DNA of 64,000 bases from IMG/VR virus record IMGVR_UViG_3300046517_001303. One strand, given 5' to 3'. The notes beneath the pieces were generated by a model. The model saw only the letters and a program-made list of their open reading frames with translations. It ran no database searches and had not been told where the DNA came from. The position numbers were made by a program, and so were the translations under genes. Shown piece after piece: positions 3,503-59,807 of the stretch; within the stretch, counting starts at the first letter, position 1; every line of letters starts with the position of its first letter. Source of the DNA: a virus.

Positions 3503-3768
3503 TTGGGGAGGAGTGGCCACCGCTCCTCCCGACCGAAGAAATCCGGCGGCTTCTGGGCGGCGAGCCGTGGTGCTTCCCGCCGGCCGTCGTCGGCGACATC
3601 GACCGCGACTCCGTGTTCGACACGTTCATCACGGAAGAGGTCGCGAAGAGAAACGAAGAGAAGGTGGCCGCGTCGCACCGGGAAATCTTCTTCGCTCACG
3701 GTCGCCGGATCGGCGACACCTGGCTCCAGACTGAGGCCGCATGGCAGCAACACTGCAAGGCGTACTGA
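3056..3768 (+). CDS. tail assembly chaperone G-T type fusion via putative -1 programmed frameshift near 3494-3502
   Basis: -1 frame downstream of the stop encodes a plausible protein (IVGEEWPPLLPTEEIRRLLGGEPWCFPPAVVGDIDRDSVFDTFITEEV...) ending just inside the tape-measure gene; A-run at the junction. Confidence 0.4.
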
Positions 3769-7784: not shown

Positions 7785-8974
7785 CGACGCTCACCATTCT
7801 CCCGAAGTGCCGGCACCGCGGGCCGGAAGTGCGAAACGGCCGGCACGCCTGCCACAGCGACAAGCTGATCCAGGCGTCTATCGGCGCTGGTCCCAACGAC
7901 ACTAAATGGATCGACGCCGCTGCTTATTGCCCAATCTGCCCATACCGGGACGTTCCGAAGACCGTCCCGCAACCGATCACCCACACGCCCGAACCGGCTC
8001 CACGTCAGCGCCCGTGCCTCTACGAAGGCCCGGTCATCGACTGGTGTCAAACCTGCAATCCGGCCGCGGCCGATCTGCGCCATATTCGGGACTGTTCCAT
8101 CCACGACCGCTGCGCCCGGCACCACCTGCACCTGACCTCGGACGTCAAAATCTGTTCCAGGTGCGACGATTATACAGTCATCGACCCCTCCACCTTCACG
8201 CGCCGGCACCTGCTCTACCACATTTACCCGGTCCGGAATTCAACTTGGCGGCGGAACCTGGACGCCTTGATCCAACGGCTTCCACTCTTTACCGGCCGTC
8301 GGGTCATGGCCATCGCGACCGATCCGCCAATTCCCATTCCTTACCGGCACGGGACTGGCCCGCCGCCGGACAACGCTCGCATCCCGCTTACGAGCGAACC
8401 GCCGGAAGCGGTCGAGTCCTACATGGCCGGCCACGACATTGAGTTTATCCGCTGCGTGAACGACCCGAACCTGCGCGAAGTGGCGACCTTCCTGCCGCTC
8501 TTCTCGCGCGTCAGCGACCTCGTATCGCCGTCGGACGTGACGCTCTACGCCCACGCGAAAGGCTCGACTCGCGCACCCGGCCATCCGGCCCACGAATGGA
8601 CCGACGTTCTTACGGAAGCCATGCTGGATTATTGGCCCGTAGTGGCCCGTGTTCTTGGCCGCACGCCGCTGGCCGGCTGTTTCCTCAAGCGCGGCGCGGG
8701 CTGGCGAGCAGAGCAGTCGCGATCCGACTGGCACTACAGCGGTTCGTGGTTCTGGTTCCGGAACGTGGACCTGTTCTCGCTCCCGGACTGGCCCAAGATC
8801 GACCAGTTCTGGTCAGGCATCGAGCCGTATCCATCGCAGCATTTTCATCACTCCGATGCCGGAGTCGTCTTCCATGAAGGCCAGGTTCCGCAAGTAAATC
8901 TCTATAACGGCCGTTATTGGGAAGGCACTGTGCGGCCGGAGTGGAATAAATGGAAAGAGGCTCACCGTGCATGA
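7781..8974 (+). CDS. hypothetical protein with N-terminal Cys/His-rich zinc-binding region (about 397 aa)
   Basis: track ORF 7700-8974; likely start at MTTLTILPK (ATGA overlap with fiber gene); CxxC/HxxC clusters in the first 150 aa. Confidence 0.4.
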   Translation: MTTLTILPKCRHRGPEVRNGRHACHSDKLIQASIGAGPNDTKWIDAAAYCPICPYRDVPKTVPQPITHTPEPAPRQRPCLYEGPVIDWCQTCNPAAADLRHIRDCSIHDRCARHHLHLTSDVKICSRCDDYTVIDPSTFTRRHLLYHIYPVRNSTWRRNLDALIQRLPLFTGRRVMAIATDPPIPIPYRHGTGPPPDNARIPLTSEPPEAVESYMAGHDIEFIRCVNDPNLREVATFLPLFSRVSDLVSPSDVTLYAHAKGSTRAPGHPAHEWTDVLTEAMLDYWPVVARVLGRTPLAGCFLKRGAGWRAEQSRSDWHYSGSWFWFRNVDLFSLPDWPKIDQFWSGIEPYPSQHFHHSDAGVVFHEGQVPQVNLYNGRYWEGTVRPEWNKWKEAHRA

Positions 8975-9464
8975 CGCGGCCTACCAGTGGGTTCGCCACA
9001 TGGCGGCGATGTTGCCGCCGCGCCGGCGCGTGCTGGAGTTCGGCGCGCGGGACGTGAACGGCTCGTGCCGGCCGATCTTCGCCGGCGCGTGCCACGTCGG
9101 CGTTGATCGCCTTCCCGGCCCCGGCGTTGACATTGTCGCCGACGCCGGCACATGGAAGCCGTCCCCGGACTTTCAGCCGTTCGACACCGTCGTCTGCTTG
9201 GAAACTCTCGAACACGCCGACAATGCCGCGGCTGTTTGCGCCAACGCCTTTGCGATCCTGAGACCATCCGGCGTCGCCATCTTCACGGCCGCGGCCCTGG
9301 CCCGCGAGCCGCACTCGGCAGTAGACGGTGGGCCTTTACGCGATGGAGAGTTTTACCGTAATCTTTCAGTACCCGACCTTCGAGACTATCTATCTGCGTT
9401 CGGGTGCGTTCTCATCGACGACTCGGTGTCCGGCGATATTTACGCCTTGGCGGTGAAGACATGA
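8967..9464 (+). CDS. class I SAM-dependent methyltransferase
   Basis: motif I VLEFGARDVNGS and motif VVCLETLEHADN typical of methyltransferase type 11; GTG start overlapping the upstream stop. Confidence 0.7.
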   Translation: MHDAAYQWVRHMAAMLPPRRRVLEFGARDVNGSCRPIFAGACHVGVDRLPGPGVDIVADAGTWKPSPDFQPFDTVVCLETLEHADNAAAVCANAFAILRPSGVAIFTAAALAREPHSAVDGGPLRDGEFYRNLSVPDLRDYLSAFGCVLIDDSVSGDIYALAVKT

Positions 9465-10075
9465 ACAGCAATCCATTCCGGCATTGGGTAATCGACGGCT
9501 GGGCCGACGTGTCCAATGTGGTTTTGCCGGTCCCAGAGTGGCCGCACTGGATTCGCTACCATTCCGCGTTCGAGCAGAAGCGAACGTGCGAGCGTCCAGA
9601 CCTCTTGCCATCCCGCCTTCGCTCTTTGATCGACCTCATGCGGTCGGCGGAAACGGGTGAAGAGATCGAAAAGATGACGCAGATGTACGGCATTGGGGCC
9701 GACCAGGACTTGCGCGGCGGCGGCTTGCACGTTACCGATCCGGGCGGGTTTCTCGGCGTCCACCTGGACTACCAGATTCATCCGCTCCGAAATTTAGAAC
9801 GGCGTCTGAACGCCGTCTTATTCCTGAACCCTCTCTGGGATAATTCCTGGGGCGGCGCGCTGGAGCTTTGGAACAGCGACGCCAGCCGGGCGGTCGTCAA
9901 AATCTACCCCGCCCCTGGCCGGCTGGTCCTATTCGAGTGCGGCGACGAGTCGTATCACGGCGTCCCCGCGCCGCTGGCGTGCCCCGAAGGCGTGTGCCGG
10001 GCGACCATCGCGACGGCGTTTCTGTCCGCGCCGCGCGGCCGGCGACGGGCGCTATTCGTCCCCGTCCGGGTGTGA
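9461..10075 (+). CDS. 2OG-Fe(II) oxygenase superfamily protein
   Basis: HxD...H facial triad candidates (GVHLDYQ ... SYHGV) and a WGG..ELW core; ATGA overlap with the methyltransferase gene. Confidence 0.6.
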   Translation: MNSNPFRHWVIDGWADVSNVVLPVPEWPHWIRYHSAFEQKRTCERPDLLPSRLRSLIDLMRSAETGEEIEKMTQMYGIGADQDLRGGGLHVTDPGGFLGVHLDYQIHPLRNLERRLNAVLFLNPLWDNSWGGALELWNSDASRAVVKIYPAPGRLVLFECGDESYHGVPAPLACPEGVCRATIATAFLSAPRGRRRALFVPVRV

Positions 10076-10567: not shown

Positions 10568-10674
10568 CCCGGATCATCGGTGACACGCTGCTCATGGTCT
10601 ACCCGCTGACCTACGGTCGCGCTCGGCTTGGCATTGGACCGGTCGGGACGCTGTGGTTCGACGAGGAATGGTGA
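10564..10674 (+). CDS. micro-ORF (36 aa)
   Basis: ATGA overlap with the previous small ORF. Confidence 0.2.
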   Translation: MTRIIGDTLLMVYPLTYGRARLGIGPVGTLWFDEEW

Positions 10675-10811
10675 TTCCCGGACCACGCCAGCGCCGTGCG
10701 TGCTATGGAGGCGTGGGACGGAACAGAGCCTTGCGGGTGGGATCGCCATCCCCACACCAACCGTTATCGGCCGGATGGCGACCCGGCCAGAGAGTACACA
10801 AGGGAGCAATA

Positions 10812-11597
10812 ATGGACGACCCGCAATTCGACCAAGACCACATCTATGAGCGCGAGATCATGCCGATCATCGACTCCGCCGCTCAGAAGTGCAAACTGCT
10901 CGGCATCCCGATGATCGCCGTCTTCTGCACCGGCATGAAGGGCAACGCGGTCCATCTGCGGACGACCACGACTGGTCGCGACGGATGGGCACCGAGCTGC
11001 TTCCACGCCATCCTGGACGTGATCCACGACGACAAGCCGCATGGCGATATGTGGGTGGCGTTCGGCCTAAACCCTGACACGAAGCGGTTCGGCATCCTGG
11101 CGGTCGGCGAAACCGAAGACGATACGCAGGCCGCGGCCGACAGCAGCAGCGAGAAATACGACGTTCCGGAAGTCAAGCTCTTCAACATCGGCCCCGATCC
11201 GACCGTCGCGGCAGAAGAGACCGCACAGTGGATGATGAGCCACGGATTGTCGCGGGCCAAGGCGAAAGAGGCAATGGCCGCTGTTTCCGTGAGGCTGCTC
11301 GAACTTGTCGCCGATCACAAGCCGAGGAAAATCGGCGCGTGGGCGGCAGGGGTGATCGACGGCCGGACCGTGACCGCGGTCGCAATTGGCACCTGCCGCG
11401 AGCAGGTCGAAGCTCGTGCCCTCCAGGCCGGGTTCCCGGACGCCGATATTCTCGACCTGAGCGGCGGCGAGGCCAAGGACGCCGCTGAAAAAATCCTCTG
11501 GTGGCTGGCCGATCACGGTTTCACGAGAGTCGAAGCGAAGCCGGTCGCACTGGACTTCGGCAAGCAAATGGCGACCCTGGCCCTGAAAGCGTCTTGA
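10812..11597 (+). CDS. hypothetical protein (261 aa)
   Basis: internal start MDDPQFDQ with RBS AAGGGAGcaataATG; upstream part of track ORF 10653-11597 looks non-coding. Confidence 0.5.
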   Translation: MDDPQFDQDHIYEREIMPIIDSAAQKCKLLGIPMIAVFCTGMKGNAVHLRTTTTGRDGWAPSCFHAILDVIHDDKPHGDMWVAFGLNPDTKRFGILAVGETEDDTQAAADSSSEKYDVPEVKLFNIGPDPTVAAEETAQWMMSHGLSRAKAKEAMAAVSVRLLELVADHKPRKIGAWAAGVIDGRTVTAVAIGTCREQVEARALQAGFPDADILDLSGGEAKDAAEKILWWLADHGFTRVEAKPVALDFGKQMATLALKAS

Positions 11598-12182: not shown

Positions 12183-12379
12183 CGCCGGAACCTTCCGTTA
12201 AGACGGAATTGATGTCAGCGATCCGCCGCGACATGGATCGCCTCACTCACATGTACCACGACGCCCGGCCGGAGGATCGGGCGCAAGTGGACGCGGCCCT
12301 GGCGCGGGAGCCAATCGGTCGCCGCTTACTCTTGAATCCGTGGCTTGTCGCGTTTTTGCAAGCACGGAGCCGCCCATGA
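12161..12379 (+). CDS. hypothetical protein (72 aa)
   Basis: ORF overlapping neighbours by short stretches. Confidence 0.3.
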   Translation: MPDPTELTPEPSVKTELMSAIRRDMDRLTHMYHDARPEDRAQVDAALAREPIGRRLLLNPWLVAFLQARSRP

Positions 12380-12626
12380 GAGTCACATGGAATCTCTCAT
12401 TGTCGCCCTGGTCGCACTCGTAATCTCGATCCTGTCGTTCATCTTGTCGGCAGCGGTCGCCGGATATATTCTGTGGCTGCGGAAGAAGAGACGCCCACGC
12501 AAGTCAAACGAAAGCGAACAGGAGTATCGGGAGTTTGAGAGAGACTGGTACGATTCCGACTACTGGTGGTCCGGCGGTCGCCGGCCCCGTTACGATAGCG
12601 ACAGCGACGAACCAAGGGAGTCATGA
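12345..12626 (+). CDS. small membrane protein, holin candidate
   Basis: one strong TM helix (LIVALVALVISILSFILSAAVAGYILWL) followed by charged tail; start may be internal MESLIV. Confidence 0.35.
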   Translation: MSRFCKHGAAHESHMESLIVALVALVISILSFILSAAVAGYILWLRKKRRPRKSNESEQEYREFERDWYDSDYWWSGGRRPRYDSDSDEPRES

Positions 12627-13096
12627 TGCCTGCAATCGCGACCCGCACCGAAGGCGACGATGACCGTCCCCGTCCAGCCGACTCTCACGTCGGGCCACCG
12701 CAAGCCATCGCAACAATCACGACAGCGCCGACTCCGAGCGGCCTGGCAGGATTCGGGGAGAGATTCGGCCCGTGGGCGCAAATGGGTATCGCCGGGGCGG
12801 GGCTGATCTTCTTTTACATGATCCTCAGCTCGCAGATTCACTCGGGCCAACAGCAACACAAAGACACGATGGACCTCGTGATTCGCACGCTGGACAGGGT
12901 CGAAAACAACCAGCAATCGAACCAGACGCAGTTCACGGCAATGCAGGTCGAGATGCGGTCGCGGCTGGCCGACAGCGACCGGAAGCACGAAGACCTCGTG
13001 AAAGAAATTAAAGCGGTCGGCGAGAAGAACGCGGAAGCGATGAACAAGAACACCGAAGCCATTCAAAAACTGCTCACTAAAATGCCGGGCAATTAG
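12623..13096 (+). CDS. membrane-anchored coiled-coil protein (spanin/holin-associated candidate)
   Basis: TM segment MGIAGAGLIFFYMILS followed by Q/E/K-rich helix. Confidence 0.4.
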   Translation: MMPAIATRTEGDDDRPRPADSHVGPPQAIATITTAPTPSGLAGFGERFGPWAQMGIAGAGLIFFYMILSSQIHSGQQQHKDTMDLVIRTLDRVENNQQSNQTQFTAMQVEMRSRLADSDRKHEDLVKEIKAVGEKNAEAMNKNTEAIQKLLTKMPGN

Positions 13097-13144
13097 CGGC
13101 ACAAGAAGTGCTGTATAGCTGCTATCACTTCGAGGAGTACCGTT

Positions 13145-13396
13145 ATGATCGGAATCGACACCATCGTCTATGTGATCGTCGGCCTTCTCGTGGGCGGGCT
13201 GATCCTCGCGCTGTTATGGTGGCTGGTCAACTACTGCGAGCAGCAGTTCCCCGGCGCTCCGCTTTTGTTCAAAGTGATCCGGATCGTCTTCGTCATTCTC
13301 GTGGTGCTGCTGCTCATCAGCATCTTGCTCCACTTGATCGGCGTGCCACTGATTCGCTTTGGACCTCCGGCTGGCAATGGGCTGGGGCGCGGATGA
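13145..13396 (+). CDS. small two-TM membrane protein, holin candidate (83 aa)
   Basis: IVYVIVGLLVGGLILALLWWLV and IVFVILVVLLLISILLHLIGV hydrophobic helices. Confidence 0.45.
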   Translation: MIGIDTIVYVIVGLLVGGLILALLWWLVNYCEQQFPGAPLLFKVIRIVFVILVVLLLISILLHLIGVPLIRFGPPAGNGLGRG

Positions 13397-13629
13397 TTAT
13401 TCTGCCAACCGAATCGGAAATCGCGAAGTTCGCACCGCCGCAGCTCGGTCGTCCCGACGATTTTCTCTTCGAGGACGACCGCGGTCTGCCGTGCGTCCGG
13501 AAGCCTGTCGGACTTTCCGGATGGCCTCTTCTTCCAGAAGGGTCGGCGAACACAGAAGTTTCACCAGTTCCAGACTCTTTTCCATTGGATGCTCCTGTAG
13601 CCTTACTTCCGTCAGCGCCGCTTCTATAA
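13393..13629 (+). CDS. hypothetical protein (78 aa, internal start of track ORF 13108-13629)
   Basis: ATGA overlap with previous gene at ~13393; weak. Confidence 0.25.
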   Translation: MIILPTESEIAKFAPPQLGRPDDFLFEDDRGLPCVRKPVGLSGWPLLPEGSANTEVSPVPDSFPLDAPVALLPSAPLL

Positions 13630-13666
13630 TCTTGACAGGTGTTTTCCCCTTCAAGGAGAGATTTTC

Positions 13667-14293
13667 ATGAAGTTTGCGCTACGGAACCTATCGCCAGAAA
13701 TCAAGATCGCCGTCCTGGGCCTAGCCGCTCTGCTGGTGTTCGCGACCCTTGGCCGCGGCGAAGACGCCCTGGCCGCGGCCAACGCCGAGCGGGCTGCACG
13801 CGGGCTGCCGCCGTTCCAGTACGACCCCGGTCTGGCTGCGGCGGCGGAAGCCGCGGCGACCTACCGGGCCAGCTACGGGATCGCGGGCCACACAGCGAAC
13901 GACTTCCAATTCCTACCCGCCGGCGCATCGGCCCCGGCCGCAGGCTGTGCGGCGTGGCCGGACGGCATGGGTTTCGGTTCCTGCTGCCTGCACGAATCAT
14001 GGACATACGCAGGTGCGGCAACGGTTCGCGGCCGGAACGGACTCCTGTTCCACCACCTGTTCGTGAGCCACCAGGCGAGCGCCGGCCAGCCACAAAAACT
14101 GCCGGCCCCAAAGCCGGTCCCGCCCGCGGTCACTCCGCCAGTGGCCAGCACATGTGGTGCCGCGACGGCGTGCGGGTCAATGACCGTTCGCCACACGCTG
14201 CACGTTCGGGAGCGGATCGCTGTGATTAATCCGCTGATCTATCAGCCGGTGCGGACCTTCTTCCGCGGCCGGTTCGGGCATCGGTGTGGGTGA
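13667..14293 (+). CDS. secreted CAP/SCP-like protein (signal peptide)
   Basis: N-terminal signal peptide; ...ANAERAARGLPPFQYDPGLAAAAEAAATYRA... resembles the CAP/PR-1 fold N-terminal motif. Confidence 0.4.
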   Translation: MKFALRNLSPEIKIAVLGLAALLVFATLGRGEDALAAANAERAARGLPPFQYDPGLAAAAEAAATYRASYGIAGHTANDFQFLPAGASAPAAGCAAWPDGMGFGSCCLHESWTYAGAATVRGRNGLLFHHLFVSHQASAGQPQKLPAPKPVPPAVTPPVASTCGAATACGSMTVRHTLHVRERIAVINPLIYQPVRTFFRGRFGHRCG

Positions 14294-14409
14294 GCGAGAC
14301 AAAGGTGTAATCACTAACACTTCGTCCCACGTCGTCGAATGTAGGTGTGATCGGTTCGACGGGATGGCTTTGGCCGGAACGTGGGCGGTTTTCCACCAGA
14401 GGCAACGCA

Positions 14410-14871
14410 ATGCGAACCCTTCTCGCGGCCCTTGCTCTCATCCTGACGCCGGCTGTTGCGTGGTCGCAAAACCACGGCCAGTGTCCGTGTCATGCCGGCG
14501 GCGGGCAATGCGTCTGCCAACCCGCGTCACGGTGCCCGAACTGCCCGCCGCAGGGCCGTGCCGCTCCGGCTTACCGCACGGTCGGATACGACAGCCGATT
14601 AGTCCAGGTCCAGCCTGGCGTGCGGGTGGTCTTAGCCTGCGCTCCGCCGTTGCGGGTGGATGTGATCCAGCAGGCACCAGTGCTACAGATTCGCGTCGAT
14701 CAGCCACGGATGTATGTGGTCGAGACCCCGATATTCATCGAGCCGCCAGTTTTTCTGCCAGAAGTTCGGTACTCTGTTCCGCAGACCACGGTGATTCGCC
14801 AGCGGACATACACCCCGCCGGTGTACCAGCTTCCGAGCTATAGTCGCACTGTCATTCGCTGCCGGACGTGA
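14410..14871 (+). CDS. secreted Cys-rich protein (signal peptide)
   Basis: MRTLLAALALILTPAVAWSQ signal peptide then CPCHAGGGQCVCQPASRCPNCPP; likely internal start of track ORF 14347-14871. Confidence 0.4.
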   Translation: MRTLLAALALILTPAVAWSQNHGQCPCHAGGGQCVCQPASRCPNCPPQGRAAPAYRTVGYDSRLVQVQPGVRVVLACAPPLRVDVIQQAPVLQIRVDQPRMYVVETPIFIEPPVFLPEVRYSVPQTTVIRQRTYTPPVYQLPSYSRTVIRCRT

Positions 14872-15066
14872 GGCAACTGACCGGCCCGGTCGGGCCAACG
14901 GTGAGTCATGATTCAAATCAACATCGAAAAGATGCTATACTGGCCCTACTGGTGTCGGTGCAAGGGCCGGGTCGTTTTTCACTTGGGGCGGATCGTTGAC
15001 TCGACCGCTCCCTTCGTGAAAGTTCCCCACCGACACATTTCCAACCCCCCTGATCTGGAGATCGCA

Positions 15067-15378
15067 ATGTTGACCGAGCAAACGTTCCTCGCCTCCGTGA
15101 CGTTCGCCGACTCGAAAGGCAAGCCGGCCAAAGTGGACGGCGCGCCGGTTTGGGCCACGGACAATTCTGACGTTCTGACCATCGCCCCCGCGGCCGATGG
15201 CATGTCCTGCCAGGTGACTTCGAGCATCATCGCCGGCGCGGCGAAGCTGAAGGTTTCTGCCGACGCCGACCTGGGCGCTGGCGTGGTCCTGATCGAAGGC
15301 ACCCTGGACGTGACTGTTGACGCTCGTCCGGCGACCAGCGTGGTCATCACCGCTGGCCCTGCGACCGATACGCCGTGA
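15067..15378 (+). CDS. bacterial Ig-like (Big_2-type) domain protein
   Basis: ...VTFADSKGKPAKVDGAPVWATDNSDVLTIAPAADGMSCQVTSSIIAGAAKLKVSAD... typical Big_2 beta-sandwich pattern. Confidence 0.45.
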   Translation: MLTEQTFLASVTFADSKGKPAKVDGAPVWATDNSDVLTIAPAADGMSCQVTSSIIAGAAKLKVSADADLGAGVVLIEGTLDVTVDARPATSVVITAGPATDTP

Positions 15379-15470
15379 CCTTTCGGGGCGGCGGTTGGGT
15401 GATGCTTGTGGGAAGTGTTCACCCGCTGCGTGTTGGGATCGCCGCCCCGAGATTCCTCTGAGGTACAACT

Positions 15471-15731
15471 ATGCACTACCGCAATGGCCGCGAGGCCAAA
15501 AACGGCGACAAGGTCGTATCTCTGGCCGGTTACGGGACCGGCCCGGTCAACATCAACGCGATTGGCATCCTCTACGACGCGGTGCCGGGAAACGACTACT
15601 GCAACGGCAGCATCGCCTCGATCCTTGGTGGTCCCGTGGTAGGCGCGTGCCTGTGCGATTGCCTGCACCTGGACGACGTGGCCGCACTGATCGTGGAAAA
15701 AGGACTCCACAAGCGACCCCCTGGCAAATGA
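15471..15731 (+). CDS. hypothetical protein (86 aa)
   Basis: RBS GAGGtacaactATG. Confidence 0.4.
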   Translation: MHYRNGREAKNGDKVVSLAGYGTGPVNINAIGILYDAVPGNDYCNGSIASILGGPVVGACLCDCLHLDDVAALIVEKGLHKRPPGK

Positions 15732-15740
15732 GGTCAACTC

Positions 15741-15968
15741 ATGTCTGACCGCCGATCTTCTGACCGCGATCCACCCATCGAAGTCCACGAGCGGTCGATG
15801 CTGCCGGTGCCGAGTTATGGCTGTCATCCGCCGCACGACGATCCGCTCGACCCGTTCTCGGACGACGACAGCAACAACGACGACGACACGGCCGACATTG
15901 AAGCGGCCTTGGAGAAACACGTCTTCGACCCAGCCCGCGTCGTCGTCTTGCCGGAGGGCCTTGAGTGA
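15741..15968 (+). CDS. acidic hypothetical protein (75 aa)
   Basis: ORF; Asp-rich. Confidence 0.35.
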   Translation: MSDRRSSDRDPPIEVHERSMLPVPSYGCHPPHDDPLDPFSDDDSNNDDDTADIEAALEKHVFDPARVVVLPEGLE

Positions 15969-16147
15969 GCGACGTTACGATCTATCAAGACCCGGAACTG
16001 ACCAAAGCCGCCGACGACTTCCTTGAAGGGATAAAGGGCGACTCTTGCGGAAGCGTCAATGGCGTACCGTTGTTCGTGGAATGGGTATTACGTCACGCTT
16101 TTGAGCGTGGCGTCGCATGGCAGCAATCGCGGGAGGCCCAAAAGTGA
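15965..16147 (+). CDS. hypothetical protein (60 aa)
   Basis: ATGA-type overlap with previous. Confidence 0.3.
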   Translation: MSDVTIYQDPELTKAADDFLEGIKGDSCGSVNGVPLFVEWVLRHAFERGVAWQQSREAQK

Positions 16148-16383
16148 CTTACATCATCGTATGCGGCGTGATCTTCGCCGCGTTCATCCTCACCGTGTTG
16201 TTCTTCGGCACGGCCAGCGACGACAAGAAGAACGCCTACCGTACCGAGCAGGCCAACAGCATACTGAGGCACCAGAACCGGATGCTGCTTGCGGAACTAG
16301 ATCGGCGTCGATATTATCCCGTTCCCGGAGACACCAGCCCTGTGGTTCTGGGGCCGTTCGGCAAGCCGGAGGACATTAAGTGA
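16117..16383 (+). CDS. small membrane protein
   Basis: TM helix TYIIVCGVIFAAFILTVLFFG. Confidence 0.3.
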   Translation: MAAIAGGPKVTYIIVCGVIFAAFILTVLFFGTASDDKKNAYRTEQANSILRHQNRMLLAELDRRRYYPVPGDTSPVVLGPFGKPEDIK

Positions 16384-16661
16384 CCCGCCTCTTTTCTCTC
16401 GTCGCCGTCGTCCTACTCGCGGCCCCGCTGTCGGCGCAGGACGACACATCCGATATTCAAGCAGAAATCATCGCACGGCAAGCCGCCGTGATCGCGCAGC
16501 AGCAAGTCGTGATCGACGGACTCCGGGCCGAGATTGCCGCTCTGAAACAGCCCATCGCTGCGGCCGGCGATTGTGGCCAGGCGGCATCGCAGGCTCAGAC
16601 GACCGGCGGGCGACTTCGATTGTTCGGTCGGCTTCGCGGACGACTCGGCGCATGTCAATAA
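16380..16661 (+). CDS. secreted coiled-coil protein (signal peptide)
   Basis: MTRLFSLVAVVLLAAPLSAQ signal peptide. Confidence 0.4.
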   Translation: MTRLFSLVAVVLLAAPLSAQDDTSDIQAEIIARQAAVIAQQQVVIDGLRAEIAALKQPIAAAGDCGQAASQAQTTGGRLRLFGRLRGRLGACQ

Positions 16662-16677
16662 TCCCTAAAGGTGAAAC

Positions 16678-18015
16678 TTGAAAAAGCGATTGTCTCTCTA
16701 CGCCGCTCTGCTCATCGGCACGCTGACGATCATCACGGGCGCGGCCGTCAGCCAGCCTCCCACCCCGCAACAGCAGATGGAGGCCAACCAGAAGATCATC
16801 CAAGACCTTCAGCAGCAACTCGCTGCGATGAAGGTCAATGCTCAGCAGCCGCCCGCCGCCCAGCCGCTTCCCAAAGGTCCAGCTCCGGCTCCAGCTGCAC
16901 CGCTGAAGGCCGGCATCAACGCCAAGACCGGCCTTCCGTTCCCACGCGGGGCCGTCAAGTCGCCACGCTACGTCCTGCAAGCCGCCCCAACGCACCGCGT
17001 CTCTCAAGCCGCACCTACTCAATTTGCTATCGTTCCAAAGCAATTGAGTATGTGGTACAACGGCACATATGGCGACTGCGTTACCGCCCAAGAGGCGTTT
17101 GCAAAGGCCGCGTGGTCGATCCAGTGCGGCCTGCCGGAGCTGTTCGTTCCCGATGCCGAAGTCAAGCGGTGGGCCAGCAAGTACGGGTTCCTCAATGGCG
17201 CAAATCTAACTGATGTGATGGACCAGATGGCCAAGGACGGCTTCAACGTCGGCGGCGTGAACTACAAGGACGGCAAGTATTCTGGCGTAGACTATAGCAA
17301 CGAGAGCGTACTCCAGAATGCGATCTTCACTGGACCCGTGAATATCGCCATCGACGCCAACGCCCTTCCGTCCGGCGCTGGCAACAACATGGGCTGGTAC
17401 TCGCTGGGCGGCGGGAACTTCCCCAACACCGACCACTGCGTCGCCCTCTGCGGCTACGGACCTGCCGAGTACCTTTACCAGCAGCTAGGGCTGGCCTGTC
17501 CGTCCGCGCTCGCCGGCAAGAAGGGGTATCTCTTGTTCACATGGAACACGATTGGATTCGTGTCTCATGAATGGATCATGGGAACGGTGGTCGAAGCGTG
17601 GGTCCGCAATCCGACGACACCTGGACAGACGCCGCCCGCTCCGCCAGCGACCGTGGCCGTTCCGAATGTTGTCGGGAAGACGTTGAAGGACGCCCAGGCG
17701 ATCATCATCGCGGCCGGCCTGAATTATGCCGGCCCGACGCCAGATGCGACGCTGGCGATCAGCGAGTCGCCGCCAGCTGGGACTCAGGTCGCGACCGGCT
17801 CGACGGTGACGGTGGTCGGCTCGGTCGTGCCGATCCCGCCGGTGCCGGGCAATATTACGATCACGCTGACCCAGGAGCAGGTGCAGTCGGTGATCGAACA
17901 GGCGGGGGCGATAGTGATTACCCCGACCACGACGATCCAGGAAGTTCTCGACAAGATCAACCGCGCCAAGGCTAAGGCCGCAACACTACCGGGTCCGAAA
18001 CCACTCGTCCCATAA
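16678..18015 (+). CDS. secreted papain-like cysteine peptidase with C-terminal PASTA domain; candidate endolysin
   Basis: signal peptide; catalytic-looking GDCVTAQEAF (Cys) and NTDHCVALCGYG (His); C-terminal VPNVVGKTLKDAQAIIIAAGLNYAG...TQVATGSTVTV is a PASTA-like fold; lies in the lysis block. Confidence 0.5.
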   Translation: MKKRLSLYAALLIGTLTIITGAAVSQPPTPQQQMEANQKIIQDLQQQLAAMKVNAQQPPAAQPLPKGPAPAPAAPLKAGINAKTGLPFPRGAVKSPRYVLQAAPTHRVSQAAPTQFAIVPKQLSMWYNGTYGDCVTAQEAFAKAAWSIQCGLPELFVPDAEVKRWASKYGFLNGANLTDVMDQMAKDGFNVGGVNYKDGKYSGVDYSNESVLQNAIFTGPVNIAIDANALPSGAGNNMGWYSLGGGNFPNTDHCVALCGYGPAEYLYQQLGLACPSALAGKKGYLLFTWNTIGFVSHEWIMGTVVEAWVRNPTTPGQTPPAPPATVAVPNVVGKTLKDAQAIIIAAGLNYAGPTPDATLAISESPPAGTQVATGSTVTVVGSVVPIPPVPGNITITLTQEQVQSVIEQAGAIVITPTTTIQEVLDKINRAKAKAATLPGPKPLVP

Positions 18016-18024
18016 GGAGCCATC

Positions 18025-18306
18025 GTGAAGCTGATTCAAACCGTCCACATGCGATCTGTGCTGCGTCGGATGCGGCGTGACGCGGCGACCCCGGAAGACG
18101 CCCGCGCGATCGACATCGCGCTGGGCGACGTCGATGTGTTCAACGCGCTGACCGAAGCCGTCAACGACGACGCCGCCTCCCCTGTGAAGATGACCGTCGG
18201 CGTGCCGCCACGCGGCGGGCTGATCGACATCCTCAACTGGCTCATCGCCAATATGCCCGCCATCCTCGCGTTCATTCAGGAAATTCTGAAGCTATTCGGA
18301 CTGTGA
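18025..18306 (+). CDS. hypothetical protein (93 aa)
   Basis: GTG start directly after upstream stop. Confidence 0.4.
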   Translation: MKLIQTVHMRSVLRRMRRDAATPEDARAIDIALGDVDVFNALTEAVNDDAASPVKMTVGVPPRGGLIDILNWLIANMPAILAFIQEILKLFGL

Positions 18307-18409: not shown

Positions 18410-19279
18410 CTACCTCGGTGGGACCGTGCCGGCCGGCCTTGCTGTGAGTGCAAGTCCGGCCGGTTTTTCATGCGCCCTCTCCCGCCCCAGCTTCACGGCC
18501 GCTGCGGACAGGGCTGCGTTGGCGTCGGCGAGGGTGGGGGCATGTTTGGCGGTCATTTGCTCCCCACCGATTTCGACCACCGGTAACTCCAGCAAATCGT
18601 AAAGGTCGATACCGATGAACCAGGGCGACTGTGGCTCGGGTCGTCCTGGCATCCAGTTCCACACGTTGCCGGCATCGCATTCAAGCTGGATCGGCCGCTT
18701 CCCCACGAGTTCCACCCGCGTCAGCGGTGCCGCCCAGAACACGGCCGATGCGATGCCCTCGGTGGTGCCGGTGCCGTGGCAAGCGGGGCACGTCGGCCAC
18801 GGCTCGCCACCTTGCAGGACACAAAAGCAGGTGCCCCCGAACAGCGTCCGCAGGTCACAGCGGATGAGGTCGGGGAAGCCGCGGGCGAAGGCACAGCGGA
18901 ATTCGCCATCCATGACGATGTGGAAGTCTTGTAAATCTCCAAGACATGAGACCGTGTTAACTCCGAACGTTCTGGAAAGCCAAACAGGCCAGTGCCGCTC
19001 CAGCAACGCCCGTTCTCGGCTGCGGAGATCGACCGGGCCAAGAAATGTTGCCCCCCATGCGATTCGTTGTGGCATTTTAATCCGGGCCACGTTCTCGTGG
19101 AATTCACGGTCCAATCTCGCCAACTCCACGCCGACCCTCACGAATTCTGCGAGGTCACACCACTGCTCGCCAACTTCCGGCAGTCGGTCCGCCAGCACGA
19201 GCCGGATGTCATCCCGGTGCGGCTCGTCCAAGATCGCCAGCATCAGGGCGTTGGCGGTGTCATCGGCGAAGTCGGTCAA
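18410..19279 (-). CDS. TIGR02996-like domain protein (Gemmata repeat-companion family)
   Basis: N-terminal ...DDIRLVLADRLPEVGEQWCDLAEF... Confidence 0.55.
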   Translation of the reverse strand: MTDFADDTANALMLAILDEPHRDDIRLVLADRLPEVGEQWCDLAEFVRVGVELARLDREFHENVARIKMPQRIAWGATFLGPVDLRSRERALLERHWPVWLSRTFGVNTVSCLGDLQDFHIVMDGEFRCAFARGFPDLIRCDLRTLFGGTCFCVLQGGEPWPTCPACHGTGTTEGIASAVFWAAPLTRVELVGKRPIQLECDAGNVWNWMPGRPEPQSPWFIGIDLYDLLELPVVEIGGEQMTAKHAPTLADANAALSAAAVKLGRERAHEKPAGLALTARPAGTVPPR

Positions 19280-19896
19280 GTCGTCGCAGCCTCCGTCTCG
19301 GGTTCGCCGCAGATGTCCCGTAACGACGCCTCTTTCAGCTTGAGTCTGCCGAGTTGGCCCACAGCCGCTTCAAACGAACCAGGCGGGATGAATTTCCCCG
19401 TAGGCTTAGCAGGCACATGCAGCATCTCGGCTATCTCGCCCCGTACCCGCCGCAACTCGTCGGCCGCGGATTGCACCGCAAGGTATGCCTTGCAGAAAGC
19501 GTTTTCGGCGGCTTGGCGGGTGGGGAACTCTACACAATCGCCAACGTCTGGCCTTCCCCCCATCGCTCTCCAAAGATTGCGGGGCAGGCAGTTGGCCGAT
19601 GCTTTCCCGATAACGCTCCATTCATCATCCTTTGTGTCGTCGTCATTCCAACGGTTCCACCACCACGGTTTTGGGTCTTCCCAACTTCGTTTCGTGAACG
19701 TCGGCCGCTTCCGGTTCGACGCGAGCCATCGCAGGCCCGGTGCCCGCGGGTCGCCGGTATCCTCGCACCATTCTGCGAACAGGTCGCGGGTAACGTGATC
19801 GTCGGGATTTTTGTCAAGCATCGCCACGAAGGCAGTCTCGTCGGTCATGACGTGGCCTCCGTGGGGCCGGGTGGGAGCGGCAACGGGCCGTACCAC
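19276..19896 (-). CDS. TIGR02996-like domain protein
   Basis: MTDETAFVAMLDKNPDDHVTRDLFAEWCEDTGDPRAPGLRWL...; C-terminal ...FPTRQAAENAFCKAYL module. Confidence 0.55.
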   Translation of the reverse strand: MVRPVAAPTRPHGGHVMTDETAFVAMLDKNPDDHVTRDLFAEWCEDTGDPRAPGLRWLASNRKRPTFTKRSWEDPKPWWWNRWNDDDTKDDEWSVIGKASANCLPRNLWRAMGGRPDVGDCVEFPTRQAAENAFCKAYLAVQSAADELRRVRGEIAEMLHVPAKPTGKFIPPGSFEAAVGQLGRLKLKEASLRDICGEPETEAATT

Positions 19897-21548: not shown

Positions 21549-21790
21549 TCTGCAACGTCTGCAAGGGGATGAAGGTGGTGCCGCTGTCCAAACGACAGCG
21601 GCATCTGAAGCGCCCGTGCGAGGTCTGCGCCGGCACGGGCGAGGTCGCCGACCCACCGACTGCGCCGGTGGACGTGCAGAAGGCGAAAGAAGAACTCGCG
21701 GCGGTCGAGCCTTTGAAGCCGCAGCCCGTGGTCGTAGACTTCGCGTCCATCATGCGGGCGCTGGGCGGCTGGGCGACGCCGCGAGATTGA
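21545..21790 (+). CDS. zinc-finger protein (81 aa)
   Basis: CNVCKG ... CEVCAGTG; ATGA overlap. Confidence 0.35.
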   Translation: MICNVCKGMKVVPLSKRQRHLKRPCEVCAGTGEVADPPTAPVDVQKAKEELAAVEPLKPQPVVVDFASIMRALGGWATPRD

Positions 21791-21798
21791 CCTTGACG

Positions 21799-23070
21799 AT
21801 GCGTGTCTTTCCGTATATAGTGAACGGAAAGACAGATACCATTCTGGAGACGACCGTGACAACTGCCCTCGCTGAGCGTACCGAAGCCCCCACCAGTTTG
21901 ATCCGCCTGGCGCTGGAGCAGGGCGTATCCGCCGACCACCTGAAGGGTCTTTTCGACCTTCAATACCGACACGAGCGGAACGTCGCCGAGAGCGAGTTCG
22001 CCCGTGCCCTGACGCTGTTCCAGTCGAAGATGACGGCTGTCGTTCGGGGTCGGGACGTGGACGGGAAGTTCAAGTACGCCACGTTCGAGGCGATGATGGC
22101 CGCGGCGTCGCCGCACCTGAAAGAGTGCGGGATCGTCGTAACCTTCGACACGGCCCCGGTTGACAAGGACAAGCTGCTGATAATCTGCAAGATTCGGGTC
22201 GGCATCCACTGTGAGCCGACGTCGGTGATTGTGCCGTTCCCGCCCGGCAACAAGGCGATCAACGCCGCGCAGATTGTTGGGCAGGCCATCGGCTACGGCA
22301 AGCGGTACTCGTTCGCCGCCGCCCTCAACATCCCAACGATGGACGAAGACGACGCGGTCGATCACAAAGCCGAGGTTCTGGCGGCGCTGGCCGCGGCGAA
22401 GACGGCCGACGAGATCGACACGCTGGGCGTCGAGTTCAAGAAGATCGCCGACAAGTTTACCTCCGACGAGCAGGCCGAGATCAAGCTGGCGGCGGTGGCG
22501 GCGCGGGAGCGAGTGAAGATCGCCGGCGCGGCCGAACGGGTCCAAGTCGGGGCCGCAGCGTTCAACAACGGCGAACGGGTTCCGGACAGCGTGAAAGACG
22601 ACGTGAAGATTCTGATGGACCAGAACGCGATTCTCGGCCCGTCCGTCGTCGTATCGCCTGACAACGGCCACGCCGAGTCGGTCCAGGTCGTGACGCCGGC
22701 CCCGGACCAGACGGTCGAGTCGCCGACCGCGGCGATTATCGACGCCATCAATGGCGCGGCTCCGGACGGCAAAGTCCTACACGGAGCGATCCAGGCCGCG
22801 ATGTACGCGGCTGCTAATGACGCGGCCGATTCAGTTTCGACCGTGAACATGCTGGACAAGACCGCCAAGATCGAAGACGCAGCCATCATCGAGGCGCGGC
22901 TCCTGAAGTCGATCATCGGCTCCGAAACGGCCGAAGACATTGGCGCGGCCATCGCCGACTGCACGGCAAACAAGACAAACCTGGACACTGCGGCCATTGG
23001 CCGGCTCTCGTTCGCCATCCGCGACCGGAAGGCGGCGCTCGAAAAAAAGTTGACTGGCCGGAAGGCATGA
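21799..23070 (+). CDS. ERF-family single-strand annealing protein (SSAP)
   Basis: GQAIGYGKRYSFAAALNIPTMDEDDAV resembles the ERF core (G..TYARRYAL....GI..DDDG); upstream 5' part of track ORF 21616-23070 looks non-coding. Confidence 0.5.
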   Translation: MRVFPYIVNGKTDTILETTVTTALAERTEAPTSLIRLALEQGVSADHLKGLFDLQYRHERNVAESEFARALTLFQSKMTAVVRGRDVDGKFKYATFEAMMAAASPHLKECGIVVTFDTAPVDKDKLLIICKIRVGIHCEPTSVIVPFPPGNKAINAAQIVGQAIGYGKRYSFAAALNIPTMDEDDAVDHKAEVLAALAAAKTADEIDTLGVEFKKIADKFTSDEQAEIKLAAVAARERVKIAGAAERVQVGAAAFNNGERVPDSVKDDVKILMDQNAILGPSVVVSPDNGHAESVQVVTPAPDQTVESPTAAIIDAINGAAPDGKVLHGAIQAAMYAAANDAADSVSTVNMLDKTAKIEDAAIIEARLLKSIIGSETAEDIGAAIADCTANKTNLDTAAIGRLSFAIRDRKAALEKKLTGRKA

Positions 23071-24856: not shown

Positions 24857-24927
24857 CGGTGGCTGGTGAAAAGGTATCACGTCCGTCCGATGAACGGACA
24901 TTACAGGTTCGATTCCTGTGCCACCGA
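24857..24927 (+). tRNA. tRNA-like gene (cloverleaf with anticodon GAU = Ile, atypical anticodon loop CCGATGA lacking U33)
   Basis: acceptor CGGTGGC/GCCACCG, D-arm GTGA-AAAGGTA-TCAC, anticodon stem TCCGT/ACGGA, T-arm ACAGG-TTCGATT-CCTGT. Confidence 0.45.
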
Positions 24928-38354: not shown

Positions 38355-38615
38355 ATGAATATGATCGCGACCGTACTAAACGCTGTCCCCGGCAAAGTGG
38401 AGCTGATTCCGATTCCCGACAGCGAACCCGTGCAGTTGGGCGTCGCCGACTTCAGCAAAAAGCACAACACTGACGTCCACGCCGAAGACTTCGTCGAGTA
38501 CGTCTACTTGTGCGACCGGCCAGACGGGCACCACGTTCTCGTGATCGGCGAGGTCGGCATCCGGCTCACGAAAGAGCAGATGGTCGAGTTGGAGCGATTC
38601 TTCAAAGAGACGTAA
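38355..38615 (+). CDS. hypothetical protein (86 aa)
   Basis: ORF. Confidence 0.4.
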   Translation: MNMIATVLNAVPGKVELIPIPDSEPVQLGVADFSKKHNTDVHAEDFVEYVYLCDRPDGHHVLVIGEVGIRLTKEQMVELERFFKET

Positions 38616-55563: not shown

Positions 55564-55578
55564 CTTGATCGGTCAAGC
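55564..55578. repeat. junction palindrome CTTGATCGGTCAAGC (copy 6)
   Basis: stop TGA of 55573-55935 inside it. Confidence 0.6.
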
Positions 55579-59797: not shown

Positions 59798-59807
59798 ATT
59801 ACCACAG

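Follow-up and report, generated by a model that had tools for sequence, protein, structure and literature searches.

The locus described here raises the question of how a phage of a Gemmata-like planctomycete breaks the envelope of its host at lysis. In the window, i.e. the whole 64-kb stretch of viral DNA analysed, neither a canonical lysozyme, amidase, transglycosylase, M15, M23 or CHAP enzyme nor a canonical holin or spanin family is recognisable with Pfam and PHROGs. The best candidate for a lysis enzyme in the window is ORF 16678-18015, although an endolysin role is unproven. We tentatively read its product as an exported, cell wall-targeted cysteine endopeptidase that breaks the host envelope at lysis, which we regard as possible rather than probable. 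The sequence-only reading had proposed an exported PASTA-bearing cysteine peptidase as endolysin; since profile and structure searches detect both the peptidase and the PASTA fold and the 64 kb contain no canonical lysin, this proposal is left standing, and the window being without another detected lysin, holin or spanin family speaks for it. Terminase, portal and capsid genes were not recognised in the window, and the genome is therefore incomplete. Part of it probably lies off the contig, where a canonical lysin or lysis cassette could be encoded; the missing head and packaging genes thus count against a role of the peptidase in lysis.

The features of the block at 12.3-18.3 kb are collected in Table 1. 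In a Kyte-Doolittle hydropathy scan, by which membrane and export features were detected, ten of the thirteen genes in the block have a hydrophobic segment vs 9/110 elsewhere (p=1.4e-7, Fisher), and this clustering of membrane and secreted genes is not due to chance. The ORFs named in the sequence-only reading sit at its coordinates, and the four proteins with proposed signal peptides (13667-14293, 14410-14871, 16380-16661 and 16678-18015) all show signal-like N-termini; the small membrane proteins are present too, but there are four of them and not three. The block is on the strand of the tail-like genes, which lie upstream, and the genes switch strand right after it.

Table 1. Features of the block and domains of the peptidase, with positions in the window
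Positions	Strand	Feature	Basis or detail
12387..12626	+	Small protein, single TM (LIVALVALVISILSFILSA), charged tail	Hydropathy peak 2.92
12623..13096	+	157-aa protein, one weak TM (residues 54-72), then polar coiled-coil-like domain	Hydropathy 1.63
13145..13396	+	83-aa protein, two strong TM segments	Hydropathy peaks 2.72 and 3.41
13667..14293	+	CAP/PR-1-like protein, secreted or anchored: N-terminal hydrophobic helix, CAP core, Pro/Cys/Arg-rich tail	
14410..14871	+	Cys-rich protein, signal-like N-terminus (MRTLLAALALILTPAVAWS)	Sequence and hydropathy
15067..15378	+	Protein earlier called Ig-like	ORF opens at 14908
15471..15731	+	g15471, conserved, 86 aa, travels with peptidase	Homologue loci
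16117..16383	+	88-aa protein, one TM segment	Hydropathy 2.84
16380..16661	+	93-aa protein: signal-like N-terminus (MTRLFSLVAVVLLAAPLSA), coiled coil, C-terminal GGRLRLFGRLRGRLG tail	Sequence and hydropathy
16678..16752	+	Peptidase residues 1-25, signal peptide or signal-anchor (MKKRLSLYAALLIGTLTIITGAAVS)	Hydropathy 1.85
16930..17055	+	Peptidase residues 85-126, conserved N-terminal arm (FPRGAVKSPRYVLQAAPTH...)	Alignment
17056..17625	+	Peptidase residues 127-316, C1A-like papain-fold catalytic domain	
17653..17817	+	Peptidase residues 326-380, PASTA domain	Pfam PF03793
17860..17988	+	Peptidase residues 395-437, small C-terminal helical module (ITLTQEQVQSVIEQAG...)	Alignment
18025..18306	+	93-aa protein, hydrophobic amphipathic C-terminal hairpin (LIDILNWLIANMPAILAFIQEILKLFGL)	Homologue matches

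Tape-measure-like and large tail-like genes lie upstream of the peptidase gene, a position that would also suit a virion-associated tail lysin for entry, encoded after the tail genes; the variable C-terminal Ig-like and PKD modules of relatives are like those of tail proteins, and in L111 the peptidase gene lies inside a structural module. We consider this very improbable, since the Sec-type N-terminal signal and the lipobox-like signals seen in the alignment on homologues P0002 and P0004 are incompatible with cytoplasmic virion assembly, and about 7.7 kb with some 19 genes, a methyltransferase and an oxygenase included, separate the last large tail-like gene from the peptidase.

The ORF of the first small protein opens at TTG 12345, with an ATG at 12387; its product has no significant match in Pfam and PHROG and is holin-like in topology only. 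The 12623-13096 gene, whose start overlaps the stop of the preceding gene, has only sub-threshold Pfam and PHROG matches, and its topology resembles that of an i-spanin; a lipobox partner ORF or lipobox spanin was sought within the block and not found. The 13145-13396 product has a class II holin-like topology and, as the Cys-rich product of 14410-14871, no family match in Pfam or PHROG. The Ig-like fold suggested for 14908-15378 found no support, with no Pfam match at E<=1 and no significant match among PDB sequences. The genes 16117-16383 and 16380-16661 overlap by 4 nt, and in L003 a peptidase neighbour similar to the 16380-16661 product, ending in GSGRFRIFGRFR (pairwise E=7e-5), is encoded by a gene likewise overlapping that of a TM protein.

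The CAP-like assignment of 13667-14293 is borne out by a partial Pfam match, PR-1/CAP structures and homologues. The CAP match (24.1 bits, cut-off 21.1) is confined to positions 1-44 of the 117 in the profile; the core of about 100 aa (residues 31-136) has a pLDDT mostly of about 90 or higher in the AF2 model, whose best PDB matches are P14a, PR-1, GAPR-1 and Pry1, and among 55 homologues several carry PF00188 and one is named YkwD. In peptidase homologue P0129 the C-terminal domain shares 54% identity with this protein. L012 and L029 have 70% identical copies of g15471 downstream of the peptidase, at a distance of 1-1.5 kb; the last 35 residues of g15471 match the C-terminus of homologue P0019 (E=3.5e-5). 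The 18025-18306 product, whose hairpin motif is also found in L002 and L111, matches the C-termini of P0012, P0004, P0032, P0013, P0002 and P0014 (E 1e-9 to 3e-6), and corresponds in relatives to the C-terminal module of the peptidase itself. Each of these three neighbours is found in relatives fused C-terminally to this catalytic domain, and the genes of the block do constitute a functional unit. The related 45-kb contig L002 repeats the membrane- and secreted-protein-rich pattern; this repeat, the enrichment in the block and the three fused neighbours argue for the lysis role.

Five parts are distinguished in the peptidase: besides the papain-fold catalytic domain and the PASTA domain there are a signal or anchor peptide, a coiled coil and a conserved N-terminal arm. 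Its N-terminal segment is about 50% Gly, Ala, Ser or Thr and could therefore be a SAR-type anchor and not a signal peptide. In the arm, which has a pLDDT of 90-96 in the predicted structure, R90, G91 and P96 show no or almost no variation in the homologue alignment; the alignment of pro-cathepsins with the peptidase is 25-45 positions longer than that of mature enzymes, and the arm resembles a prosegment. Key residues of the catalytic domain are Asn128 (at the position of papain Gln19), Cys134 in GDCVT (nt 17077-17079), Asp252-His253, with His253 in NTDHCVALCGYG (nt 17434-17436), Trp289 and Glu306. Cys134 and His253 are invariant across the two sets of 96 and 103 homologues, and so is the Asn at -6 from the Cys. 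Of the papain/CHAP-like character proposed for the Cys...His pair, the papain part is upheld and the CHAP part falls: the protein is neither CHAP nor NlpC/P60 and has the full C1A architecture. The predicted PASTA-like C-terminal segment passes the gathering cut-off of PF03793 (E=1.4e-8, 35 bits vs 23.2). The helical module at the C-terminus, with predicted helices at 399-408 and 420-436, is shared with homologue P0051. The papain fold with its active site, the invariant Cys/His and the above-threshold PASTA speak for the lysis reading.

A survey of papain-like enzymes places the described peptidoglycan-acting members in the NlpC/P60-CHAP-amidase cluster (PMC10318531), and the solved structures nearest to the peptidase are those of protein-cleaving enzymes (xylellain, cathepsins, Lpg2622 and Cwp84). 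Both points argue against the lysis reading, as does the position of papain's third catalytic residue Asn175, which is not conserved and is aligned with Phe or Tyr. The enzyme might instead be an accessory envelope protease, PASTA-docked and not hydrolysing peptidoglycan; by cutting outer membrane-peptidoglycan tethers or wall-associated or surface-layer proteins it would complement a muralytic enzyme that is unrecognised or encoded off the contig. Spanins and mycobacteriophage LysB complement endolysins, and Cwp84, one of the close structural relatives that are all true proteases, processes an S-layer precursor. In two viral lineages (L017/L018 and L020/L021) a stand-alone form of the peptidase lies 1.2 kb from a canonical lysozyme and clusters with it and with small TM proteins. 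This company places the peptidase among lysis genes and speaks for the lysis reading, but with canonical lysozymes present besides the stand-alone form, a member of this family is not necessarily the primary endolysin, and the same adjacency suits an accessory protease. The latter is also favoured by a Trypsin_2 protease gene overlapping the peptidase start in L110 and by the lack of a lipobox spanin in the block. Given the conservation of the family, it would however need a protein substrate present in Actinomycetota, Acidobacteriota, Bacteroidota, Proteobacteria, Cyanobacteria and Planctomycetota, and its muralytic partner is not detectable in the window. We judge it unlikely.

The catalytic domain has no Pfam, PHROG or NCBIfam model and, with 395 clusters at E<=1e-30, defines a large undescribed family. 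Uncultivated viral contigs carry it, as do bacterial genomes from many phyla, and members at 40-48% identity occur in Acidobacteriota, Actinomycetota, Bacteroidota, Bradyrhizobium, Nostoc and others; it is therefore no planctomycete speciality, contrary to the suggestion of an architecture suited to such a host. Conservation at this level across Gram-positive and Gram-negative phyla fits a universal substrate such as peptidoglycan, in favour of the lysis reading; against it counts that 50,697 isolate phage genomes gave no match. In relatives the domain is fused to PASTA (10/96 close homologues and 1/103 of the other set), PG_binding_1 (two modules in P0236, E=1.6e-25), PG_binding_3 (E=6.4e-11), CAP and Ig-like modules, surface-type PKD and He_PIG modules occurring as well. 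Fusions of this catalytic domain to three unrelated peptidoglycan-binding modules argue for the lysis reading. A signal-like N-terminal segment is present in 67/197 homologues and in 96/197 the start is 15 residues or less from the arm; endolysin families show the same mix of members with and without a signal-like N-terminus, which also speaks for the lysis reading.

Other relatives are found among early, recombination or anti-defence genes, including RecT, CsrA, Acb2/Tad1, Acb3 and MazG. Bacterial copies, in cultured bacteria, are stand-alone genes without signal peptide, with housekeeping-type neighbours in variable contexts that do not look like prophages. Small-TM neighbours are weakly enriched overall (9/26 vs 30/137, p=0.21, not significant) and marginally for signal-peptide-bearing members (4/7 vs 32/159, p=0.04, the window being counted in the set). 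The early, recombination or anti-defence gene contexts, the signal-less bacterial copies and the weak enrichment argue against the lysis reading. In 30 of 112 homologue loci, the window not being one of them, a separate ORF just upstream copies the arm motif (PKRGAFPTP...) in an acidic, apparently disordered product of about 65-75 aa. A non-lysis effector protease, cytoplasmic or exported, could account for these contexts, with roles in host takeover, counter-defence, toxin-antitoxin-like control, superinfection exclusion or surface remodelling; the signal-peptide-plus-PASTA version of the window would then be a secreted 'moron' among secreted accessory proteins. The adjacency to Acb3 and the vicinity of Acb2/Tad1, MazG-like, RecT and CsrA genes suit such an effector, as do the half of the homologues without export signal, the contexts of the bacterial copies, the arm-copying ORF, which looks like part of an inhibitor-enzyme or substrate-enzyme pair, and the CAP-like and Cys-rich secreted proteins of the block, which have no known lysis role. 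It remains doubtful in our view: fusions to three different peptidoglycan-binding domains are hard to square with a cytoplasmic job, the window copy lies among TM proteins on the strand of the tail-like genes, and no integrase was detected in the window, therefore no sign of lysogenic conversion.

Under the preferred reading of a lysis peptidase, Sec would carry the enzyme across the cytoplasmic membrane, and the arm (RGAxPSPRHKL...) would lie over the active-site cleft like a short papain-zymogen prosegment and keep it latent. PASTA would dock it on peptidoglycan stem peptides, and the Cys/His dyad would cleave peptide bonds of the sacculus, either in stem or cross-link peptides or in peptidoglycan-attached proteins. 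The small TM proteins 12387-12626, 13145-13396 and 16117-16383 may time or permit cutting as holins or pinholins do, while the CAP-like protein, g15471 and the 18025-18306 product may be detachable accessory modules of the peptidase system.

With papain C1A enzymes (xylellain, PDB 3OIS; procathepsins L, K and H) the peptidase shares a central helix with the nucleophilic Cys at its N-terminus, an Asp-His pair opening a beta-strand (D158-H159 in papain), a polar residue six positions before the Cys (Asn instead of Gln19), the papain-like motif Y..VDYSNE..LQ.AI..GPV.IAIDA...DHCV.L.GYG and an N-terminal segment aligning with the cleft-running part of the prosegment. It differs in an identity of only 11-18% (PF00112 13.8 bits, below the threshold of 20.7), in the Phe/Tyr at the Asn175 position, for which the invariant Glu306 may stand in, in an arm that is very short and highly conserved compared to a prodomain of about 100 aa, and in being phage-carried and fused to PASTA and other wall-binding modules. 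The CHAP (C51/C104) and NlpC/P60 (C40) endolysins, such as LysK, PlyC and the D29 LysA N4 domain, are likewise clan CA Cys/His enzymes, phage-encoded and modular with wall-binding domains, and represent the known route by which cysteine peptidases serve as lysins (PMC10318531; bioRxiv 10.1101/2025.01.22.634383), but have a minimal single-lobe alpha+beta fold of about 100-140 aa. The pseudomurein endoisopeptidases PeiW, PeiP and PeiR (C71) of methanogen phages are far more distant than C1A, with a transglutaminase-like core, an archaeal substrate and N-terminal binding repeats. PASTA, present as one unit with predicted ligand binding, is shared with PBP2x-type penicillin-binding proteins and PknB/Stk1 kinases, where it is carried by a transpeptidase or kinase and not by a peptidase; a weak NCBIfam match of the peptidase is to the Stk1 PASTA region, and in the literature searched no description of a PASTA-bearing endolysin was found. 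Exported endolysins include the signal-peptide enzyme Lys44 of phage fOg44 and the SAR endolysins P1 Lyz and phage 21 R21, all muramidases. By analogy, the weakly hydrophobic Gly/Ala/Ser/Thr-rich segment of the peptidase would export it via Sec independently of a large-hole holin, and latency would be needed until triggering, which may here, in distinction to those enzymes, come from the prosegment-like arm. Propeptide-like papain inhibitors occur as separate genes in MEROPS I29 (CTLA-2, BCPI), and staphostatins in operons with staphopains; although the arm-copying ORFs have no evident similarity to I29 or staphostatins, their place beside the peptidase would be the layout expected of a trans inhibitor.

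The peptidase encoded by ORF 16678-18015(+) is a 445 amino acid protein with a papain-fold domain and a C-terminal PASTA domain (residues 326-380; PF03793, E=1.4e-8, 35 bits against a gathering cut-off of 23.2, profile positions 1-61 of 64), which bears out the PASTA-like segment proposed in the sequence-only reading. The PASTA region of Stk1 kinases is the sole NCBIfam match of the protein, and the model of the region shows the expected helix at 336-345, with low pLDDT beyond residue 350. In Pfam the catalytic domain is matched by Peptidase_C1 (PF00112) only below threshold: the match is confined to residues 196-263 and scores 13.8 bits, where 20.7 are required. This profile reaches E<=1e-3 in three of the 199 homologues scanned. 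When a profile of the family was compared with the PDB, papain-family chains were matched across the His segment, with dionain-1 first (E=7e-4), followed by actinidin and cathepsins K and L. In the AlphaFold2 model, built from 96 sequences, residues 80-320 have a pLDDT above 90, Cys134 begins the helix 134-149 and His253 begins the strand 253-262. Both residues are invariant in two alignments, of 96 and 103 sequences, which also show conservation of Asp252 and Asn128 (invariant), Trp240, Trp289, Glu306 and several glycines. As modelled, the protein has the two lobes of papain, a helical L domain and a beta-barrel R domain, with the conserved Cys opening the central helix and the conserved His opening a beta-strand. 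The Cys...His pair described earlier as papain/CHAP-like was thus correctly placed, but the fold is cathepsin-like rather than CHAP-like; CHAP or NlpC/P60 identity is ruled out by the fold evidence, and neither profiles nor nearest structures point to it. An exact-sequence look-up of the window peptidase found no record.

On the N-terminal side of the domain lies a conserved arm (residues 85-126; FPRGAxPSPRHKLxAAxPH, pLDDT 90-96). Since zymogen enzymes align with the peptidase over 25-45 positions more than mature forms do, the arm appears to take the place of the prosegment stretch running through the cleft, where it may hold the peptidase latent.

The database search returned 426 relatives sharing a core of about 230 amino acids (residues ~85-316) at 50-80% identity and without Pfam annotation, and when 1.84 billion cluster representatives were searched with the family profile, 747 clusters matched at E<=1e-3, of which 395 reach E<=1e-30. 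The catalytic core has no family model in Pfam, PHROGs or NCBIfam, the catalytic domain is unmatched in 50,697 isolate phage genomes (tblastn), and 12-19 kb of the window has no DNA match among isolate phages (blastn). The family is carried by 27 IMG/VR viral contigs (up to ~80 kb, mostly 33-80 kb), and species-representative genomes contain 112 matches at 40-48% identity, including Acidobacteriota, Actinomycetota (Flexivirga, Actinomadura, Pseudarthrobacter), Bacteroidota, Bradyrhizobium, Phenylobacterium, Nostoc, Gemmatimonadota and Gemmataceae. Because of this wide distribution, the suggestion that the architecture is suited to a planctomycete wall was abandoned. Conservation over Gram-positive and Gram-negative phyla favours a substrate present in all of them, for example the stem peptide.

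Termini were counted on the best 246 relatives, of which 197 had a core located by pattern search; about one third of these 197 have a signal-like N-terminus, about half start directly at the arm, and 92% have a C-terminal extension of at least 60 residues. Accessory domains were sought with Pfam in 96 close and 103 diverse members (counts are close + diverse where two are given). PASTA was found in 10 + 1 members, He_PIG in 1 + 4, PKD in four, and PG_binding_1 (P0236, two repeats, E=1.6e-25), PG_binding_3, CAP, TIG and Big_3_5 in one each. That peptidoglycan-binding modules of three unrelated kinds are joined to the same catalytic domain is the strongest indirect evidence for an enzyme acting on the sacculus or close to it. 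A literature search for the PASTA domain in phage endolysins found no endolysin paper. LAGLIDADG (LAGLIDADG_3) was matched in two members, and the peptidase gene of some members is probably split by an intein. In two homologous proteins, P0150 (1001 aa) and P0163 (669 aa), the catalytic core is matched in two separated stretches.

The ORFs which the sequence-only reading had placed between 12.3 and 18 kb are all present there. A hydrophobic segment is encoded by ten of the 13 genes at 12.3-18.3 kb but by only 9 of the other 110 genes (Fisher p=1.4e-7), and this block is a real envelope-directed cluster. Four of its proteins have transmembrane segments by hydropathy, one more than the three small ones proposed earlier as holin or spanin candidates, but none matches a holin or spanin family of Pfam or PHROGs. 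The CAP-like secreted protein (13667-14293) was confirmed by a partial match to PF00188 (24.1 bits against a cut-off of 21.1), which is also present in its homologues, and by the modelled alpha-beta-alpha sandwich of the CAP/PR-1/SCP fold; a PDB fold search with the model gave P14a (E=4.5e-4), then PR-1, GAPR-1 and Pry1, at modest TM-scores of 0.43-0.49. The fold of the putative Ig-like protein found no confirmation in Pfam or by PDB sequence search, the latter giving nothing significant for this protein, the CAP-like protein or the peptidase homologue P0129.

Because three window neighbours of the peptidase recur in relatives fused to its C-terminal end, the block can be read as a single system whose modules are interchangeable. 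Residues 491-596 of P0129, a domain recognised as CAP in Pfam (E=6.7e-11), share 54% identity with the CAP-like protein; the last 35 residues of the 86 amino acid protein g15471 (15471-15731(+)) match the C-terminus of the homologue P0019; and the hydrophobic C-terminal hairpin of the 18025-18306(+) product, encoded directly after the peptidase, matches the C-termini of six homologues.

The block encodes two proteins combining a transmembrane segment with a polar domain (12623-13096 and 16117-16383) and a coiled-coil protein with a signal peptide (16380-16661). A two-component spanin was rejected, there being no lipobox ORF in the three forward-strand frames of 12.0-18.5 kb and no PHROG spanin match. 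In the window (16117-16383/16380-16661), as in the related locus L003 (11186-11770/11767-12180), the gene of a transmembrane protein overlaps that of a signal-peptide coiled-coil protein by 4 nt beside the peptidase; the pair resembles a spanin pair, but lacks the lipobox. The coiled-coil protein has an Arg-rich C-terminus, GGRLRLFGRLR in the window and GSGRFRIFGRFR in L003, and the idea of a shared C-terminal motif, RLRLFGRLR, was dropped, since it was found again only in L003. Nor has 12623-13096 any detectable similarity to the transmembrane coiled-coil protein of L003. Short Gly/Cys/Arg-rich tails (e.g. GGSCAGGSCGPTPARGRRR, RGRFGHRCG) end 13667-14293, 16380-16661, P0129 and L003 11767-12180, and may be sorting or anchoring signals. 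A methyltransferase and a 2OG-Fe(II) oxygenase (8967-9464 and 9404-10075) lie between the tail-like genes and the block. Promoter and terminator counts at 9-21.5 kb were no better than chance.

Coordinates of features in the window and the basis of their assignment
Feature	Coordinates	Basis
Tape-measure-like ORF	3741-5018	PHROG tape-measure families, best E=1e-6
TM protein, single segment	12345/12387-12626; 16117-16383	hydropathy
TM protein, weaker segment, with coiled-coil-like domain	12623-13096	hydropathy
TM protein, two segments	13145-13396	hydropathy
Predicted signal-like N-terminus	13667-14293; 14410-14871; 16380-16661; 16678-18015	hydropathy
TIGR02996 'repeat-mate' protein	18410-19279(-); 19276-19896(-); 38510-39346(+); 55573-55935(-)	NCBIfam
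ERF recombinase (replication/recombination)	21616-23070	
RecD2-like helicase (replication/recombination)	28067-30208	
Primase-like protein (replication/recombination)	39697-41742	

The window, with a G+C content of ~60%, looks like a tailed-phage genome. The tape-measure-like ORF is followed by three large unannotated ORFs, and besides the replication and recombination genes of the table there are genes for an ERCC4 nuclease and for CsrA, Ro60/TROVE, SPFH, VWA and AAA proteins. No terminase, portal, major capsid or prohead protease was recognised across the 64 kb with Pfam and PHROGs, and the source contig exceeds the window by only 1.4 kb; the head module is therefore probably missing from the contig and the genome incomplete, the alternative being head proteins too divergent for recognition. 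Two of the four TIGR02996 proteins pass the cut-off (best E=6e-20); a third narrowly misses it. TIGR02996 is the 'repeat-mate' domain, first defined in Gemmata obscuriglobus. These four proteins and a chromosomal homologue of the peptidase in Frigoriglobus tundricola make a Gemmataceae host plausible, and the TIGR02996 copies show the acquisition of a host-type paralogous family by the phage. The window also carries a full-length Ro60 orthologue (31925-33541(+); TROVE E=1e-50, Ro60 vWA 4e-57). At Rfam gathering thresholds no Y RNA is present, the only matches being two tRNAs, tRNA-Ile at 24857-24927(+) and tRNA-Tyr at 59807-59897(-). A 'putative phage metallopeptidase' (PF18894) is encoded at 46847-47464(+), 29 kb from the peptidase, and another in the viral locus L024 (12067-12726), 1.4 kb from a stand-alone peptidase.

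The most likely reading of the window peptidase, which we hold tentatively, is that of an exported, wall-docked cysteine endopeptidase used at lysis. In favour of it, the gene is on the tail-like strand, just before the strand switch and among genes for transmembrane proteins, a layout repeated in the related contig L002. No canonical lysozyme or amidase was detected elsewhere in the 64 kb, and no lysin, holin or spanin family is recognisable within the window in Pfam or PHROGs, but the head and packaging module is probably off the contig. The alternative of a virion lysin is given very little credence.

In L017/L018 and L020/L021, loci carrying relatives, the peptidase gene is found among small transmembrane proteins and 1.2 kb from a canonical lysozyme (PF00959, GH24, E=8.5e-18, and a lambda-R-like enzyme, PDB 1AM7, E=3.6e-34), which places the family within lysis clusters. 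Because these loci have a lysozyme of their own, the main muralytic activity does not have to come from the family, and the peptidase might be an accessory envelope protease, which we judge unlikely. In a first set a lysozyme partner accompanied 3/3 minimal and 0/6 extended forms; the rule that this suggested was dropped after a second set (3/8 against 0/11, p about 0.06), leaving a trend only. Small transmembrane neighbours are not significantly enriched over viral loci (p=0.21, crude test) and are therefore not taken as strong evidence; for signal-peptide-bearing members the enrichment is marginal (p=0.04, window included).

Other neighbourhoods differ. Some relatives adjoin Acb3, a DNA methylase, or resolvase, SSB and YopX genes, further ones are in regions with RecT, CsrA, Acb2/Tad1 or MazG-like genes, and in cultured bacteria the gene is stand-alone, without signal peptide and with housekeeping-type neighbours. 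Together with the cathepsin-like fold, these mixed contexts argue for caution on the lysis reading. A non-lytic effector or moron is a possible, if somewhat doubtful, alternative. Single neighbours include Acb3 (a CBASS inhibitor, E=3.4e-43) directly downstream of the peptidase in L012 (11130-11876) and an Acb2/Tad1-hairpin protein 3.4 kb upstream in L114 (4332-4574). Gemmataceae-type phage contigs carry other protease genes beside the family: in L110 the start of the peptidase gene is overlapped by a Trypsin_2 gene (9382-10008), and in L113 a canonical Peptidase_C1 gene (10587-11408) is found 1.4 kb downstream; the latter was rejected as a family paralogue (pairwise E=0.41). An SLT-like assignment of L028 11447-11902 found no support in Pfam or by PDB sequence search.

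Of 112 homologue loci, 31 carry the arm motif (PKRGA[F/I]P[S/T]P..h..A.P[Y/H/F]) a second time, upstream of the peptidase, and in 30 of them this extra copy is a separate ORF (L035, L041, L042, L048, L054-L056, L058, L061-L063, L066-L068, L071-L074, L079, L080, L082, L084, L085, L091, L094, L095, L098-L100 and the viral L026). Most separate copies are small acidic ORFs (~65-75 aa) 150-350 nt upstream, with motifs such as PKRGAFPTPKSEIxxAxPYxPD; the window has none. In L106-L109 (Alphaproteobacteria and Acidobacteriaceae MAG contigs) the upstream copy probably belongs to a tandem peptidase paralogue, since the two arm motifs are ~0.9-1.2 kb apart and tblastn matches are long. The small acidic product could mimic the prosegment and act in trans, as an inhibitor or a substrate, which suggests a new mode of regulation for bacterial papain-like enzymes.

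A broader proposal, which we regard as rather speculative, is that of a new pan-bacterial C1A-fold family targeting the stem peptide. The built-in short prosegment-like arm would confer latency, and in many bacterial genomes the separately encoded acidic arm-mimic peptide would regulate the enzyme. Phages would employ as lysins the exported forms, in which a signal peptide is combined with PASTA, PG_binding or CAP modules, and signal-less forms could act on cytoplasmic wall precursors or be holin-released. If true, no cathepsin-like enzyme would have been seen to hydrolyse peptidoglycan before, and the enzyme with its inhibitor would be a new module. The catalytic domain defines a sizeable family that has escaped Pfam, PHROGs, NCBIfam and the isolate phage genomes searched. 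No isolated planctomycete phage was found in the isolate phage collection or by literature search, and the window peptidase is a concrete, testable candidate for the way in which planctomycete phages breach a Gemmata-type envelope.

Against the lysis reading, the one survey of papain-like enzymes consulted describes peptidoglycan-acting members in the NlpC/P60-CHAP-amidase cluster (PMC10318531). If the window peptidase cuts peptidoglycan, the full cathepsin-like fold would be added to the small CHAP and NlpC/P60 folds of phage lysins and PASTA would join the lysin wall-binding modules, of use in enzybiotic engineering and in the annotation of 'hypothetical' genes in viromes of soil and freshwater. 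Should its substrates be proteins, a proteolytic step in lysis or in the manipulation of the host would be indicated. With respect to papain itself, the invariant Asn128, six residues before the Cys, stands where papain has Gln19 of the oxyanion hole. Asn175, which completes the triad in papain, is replaced in the family by Phe/Tyr (two residues ahead of the conserved Trp289), and the invariant Glu306 is a candidate substitute for it.
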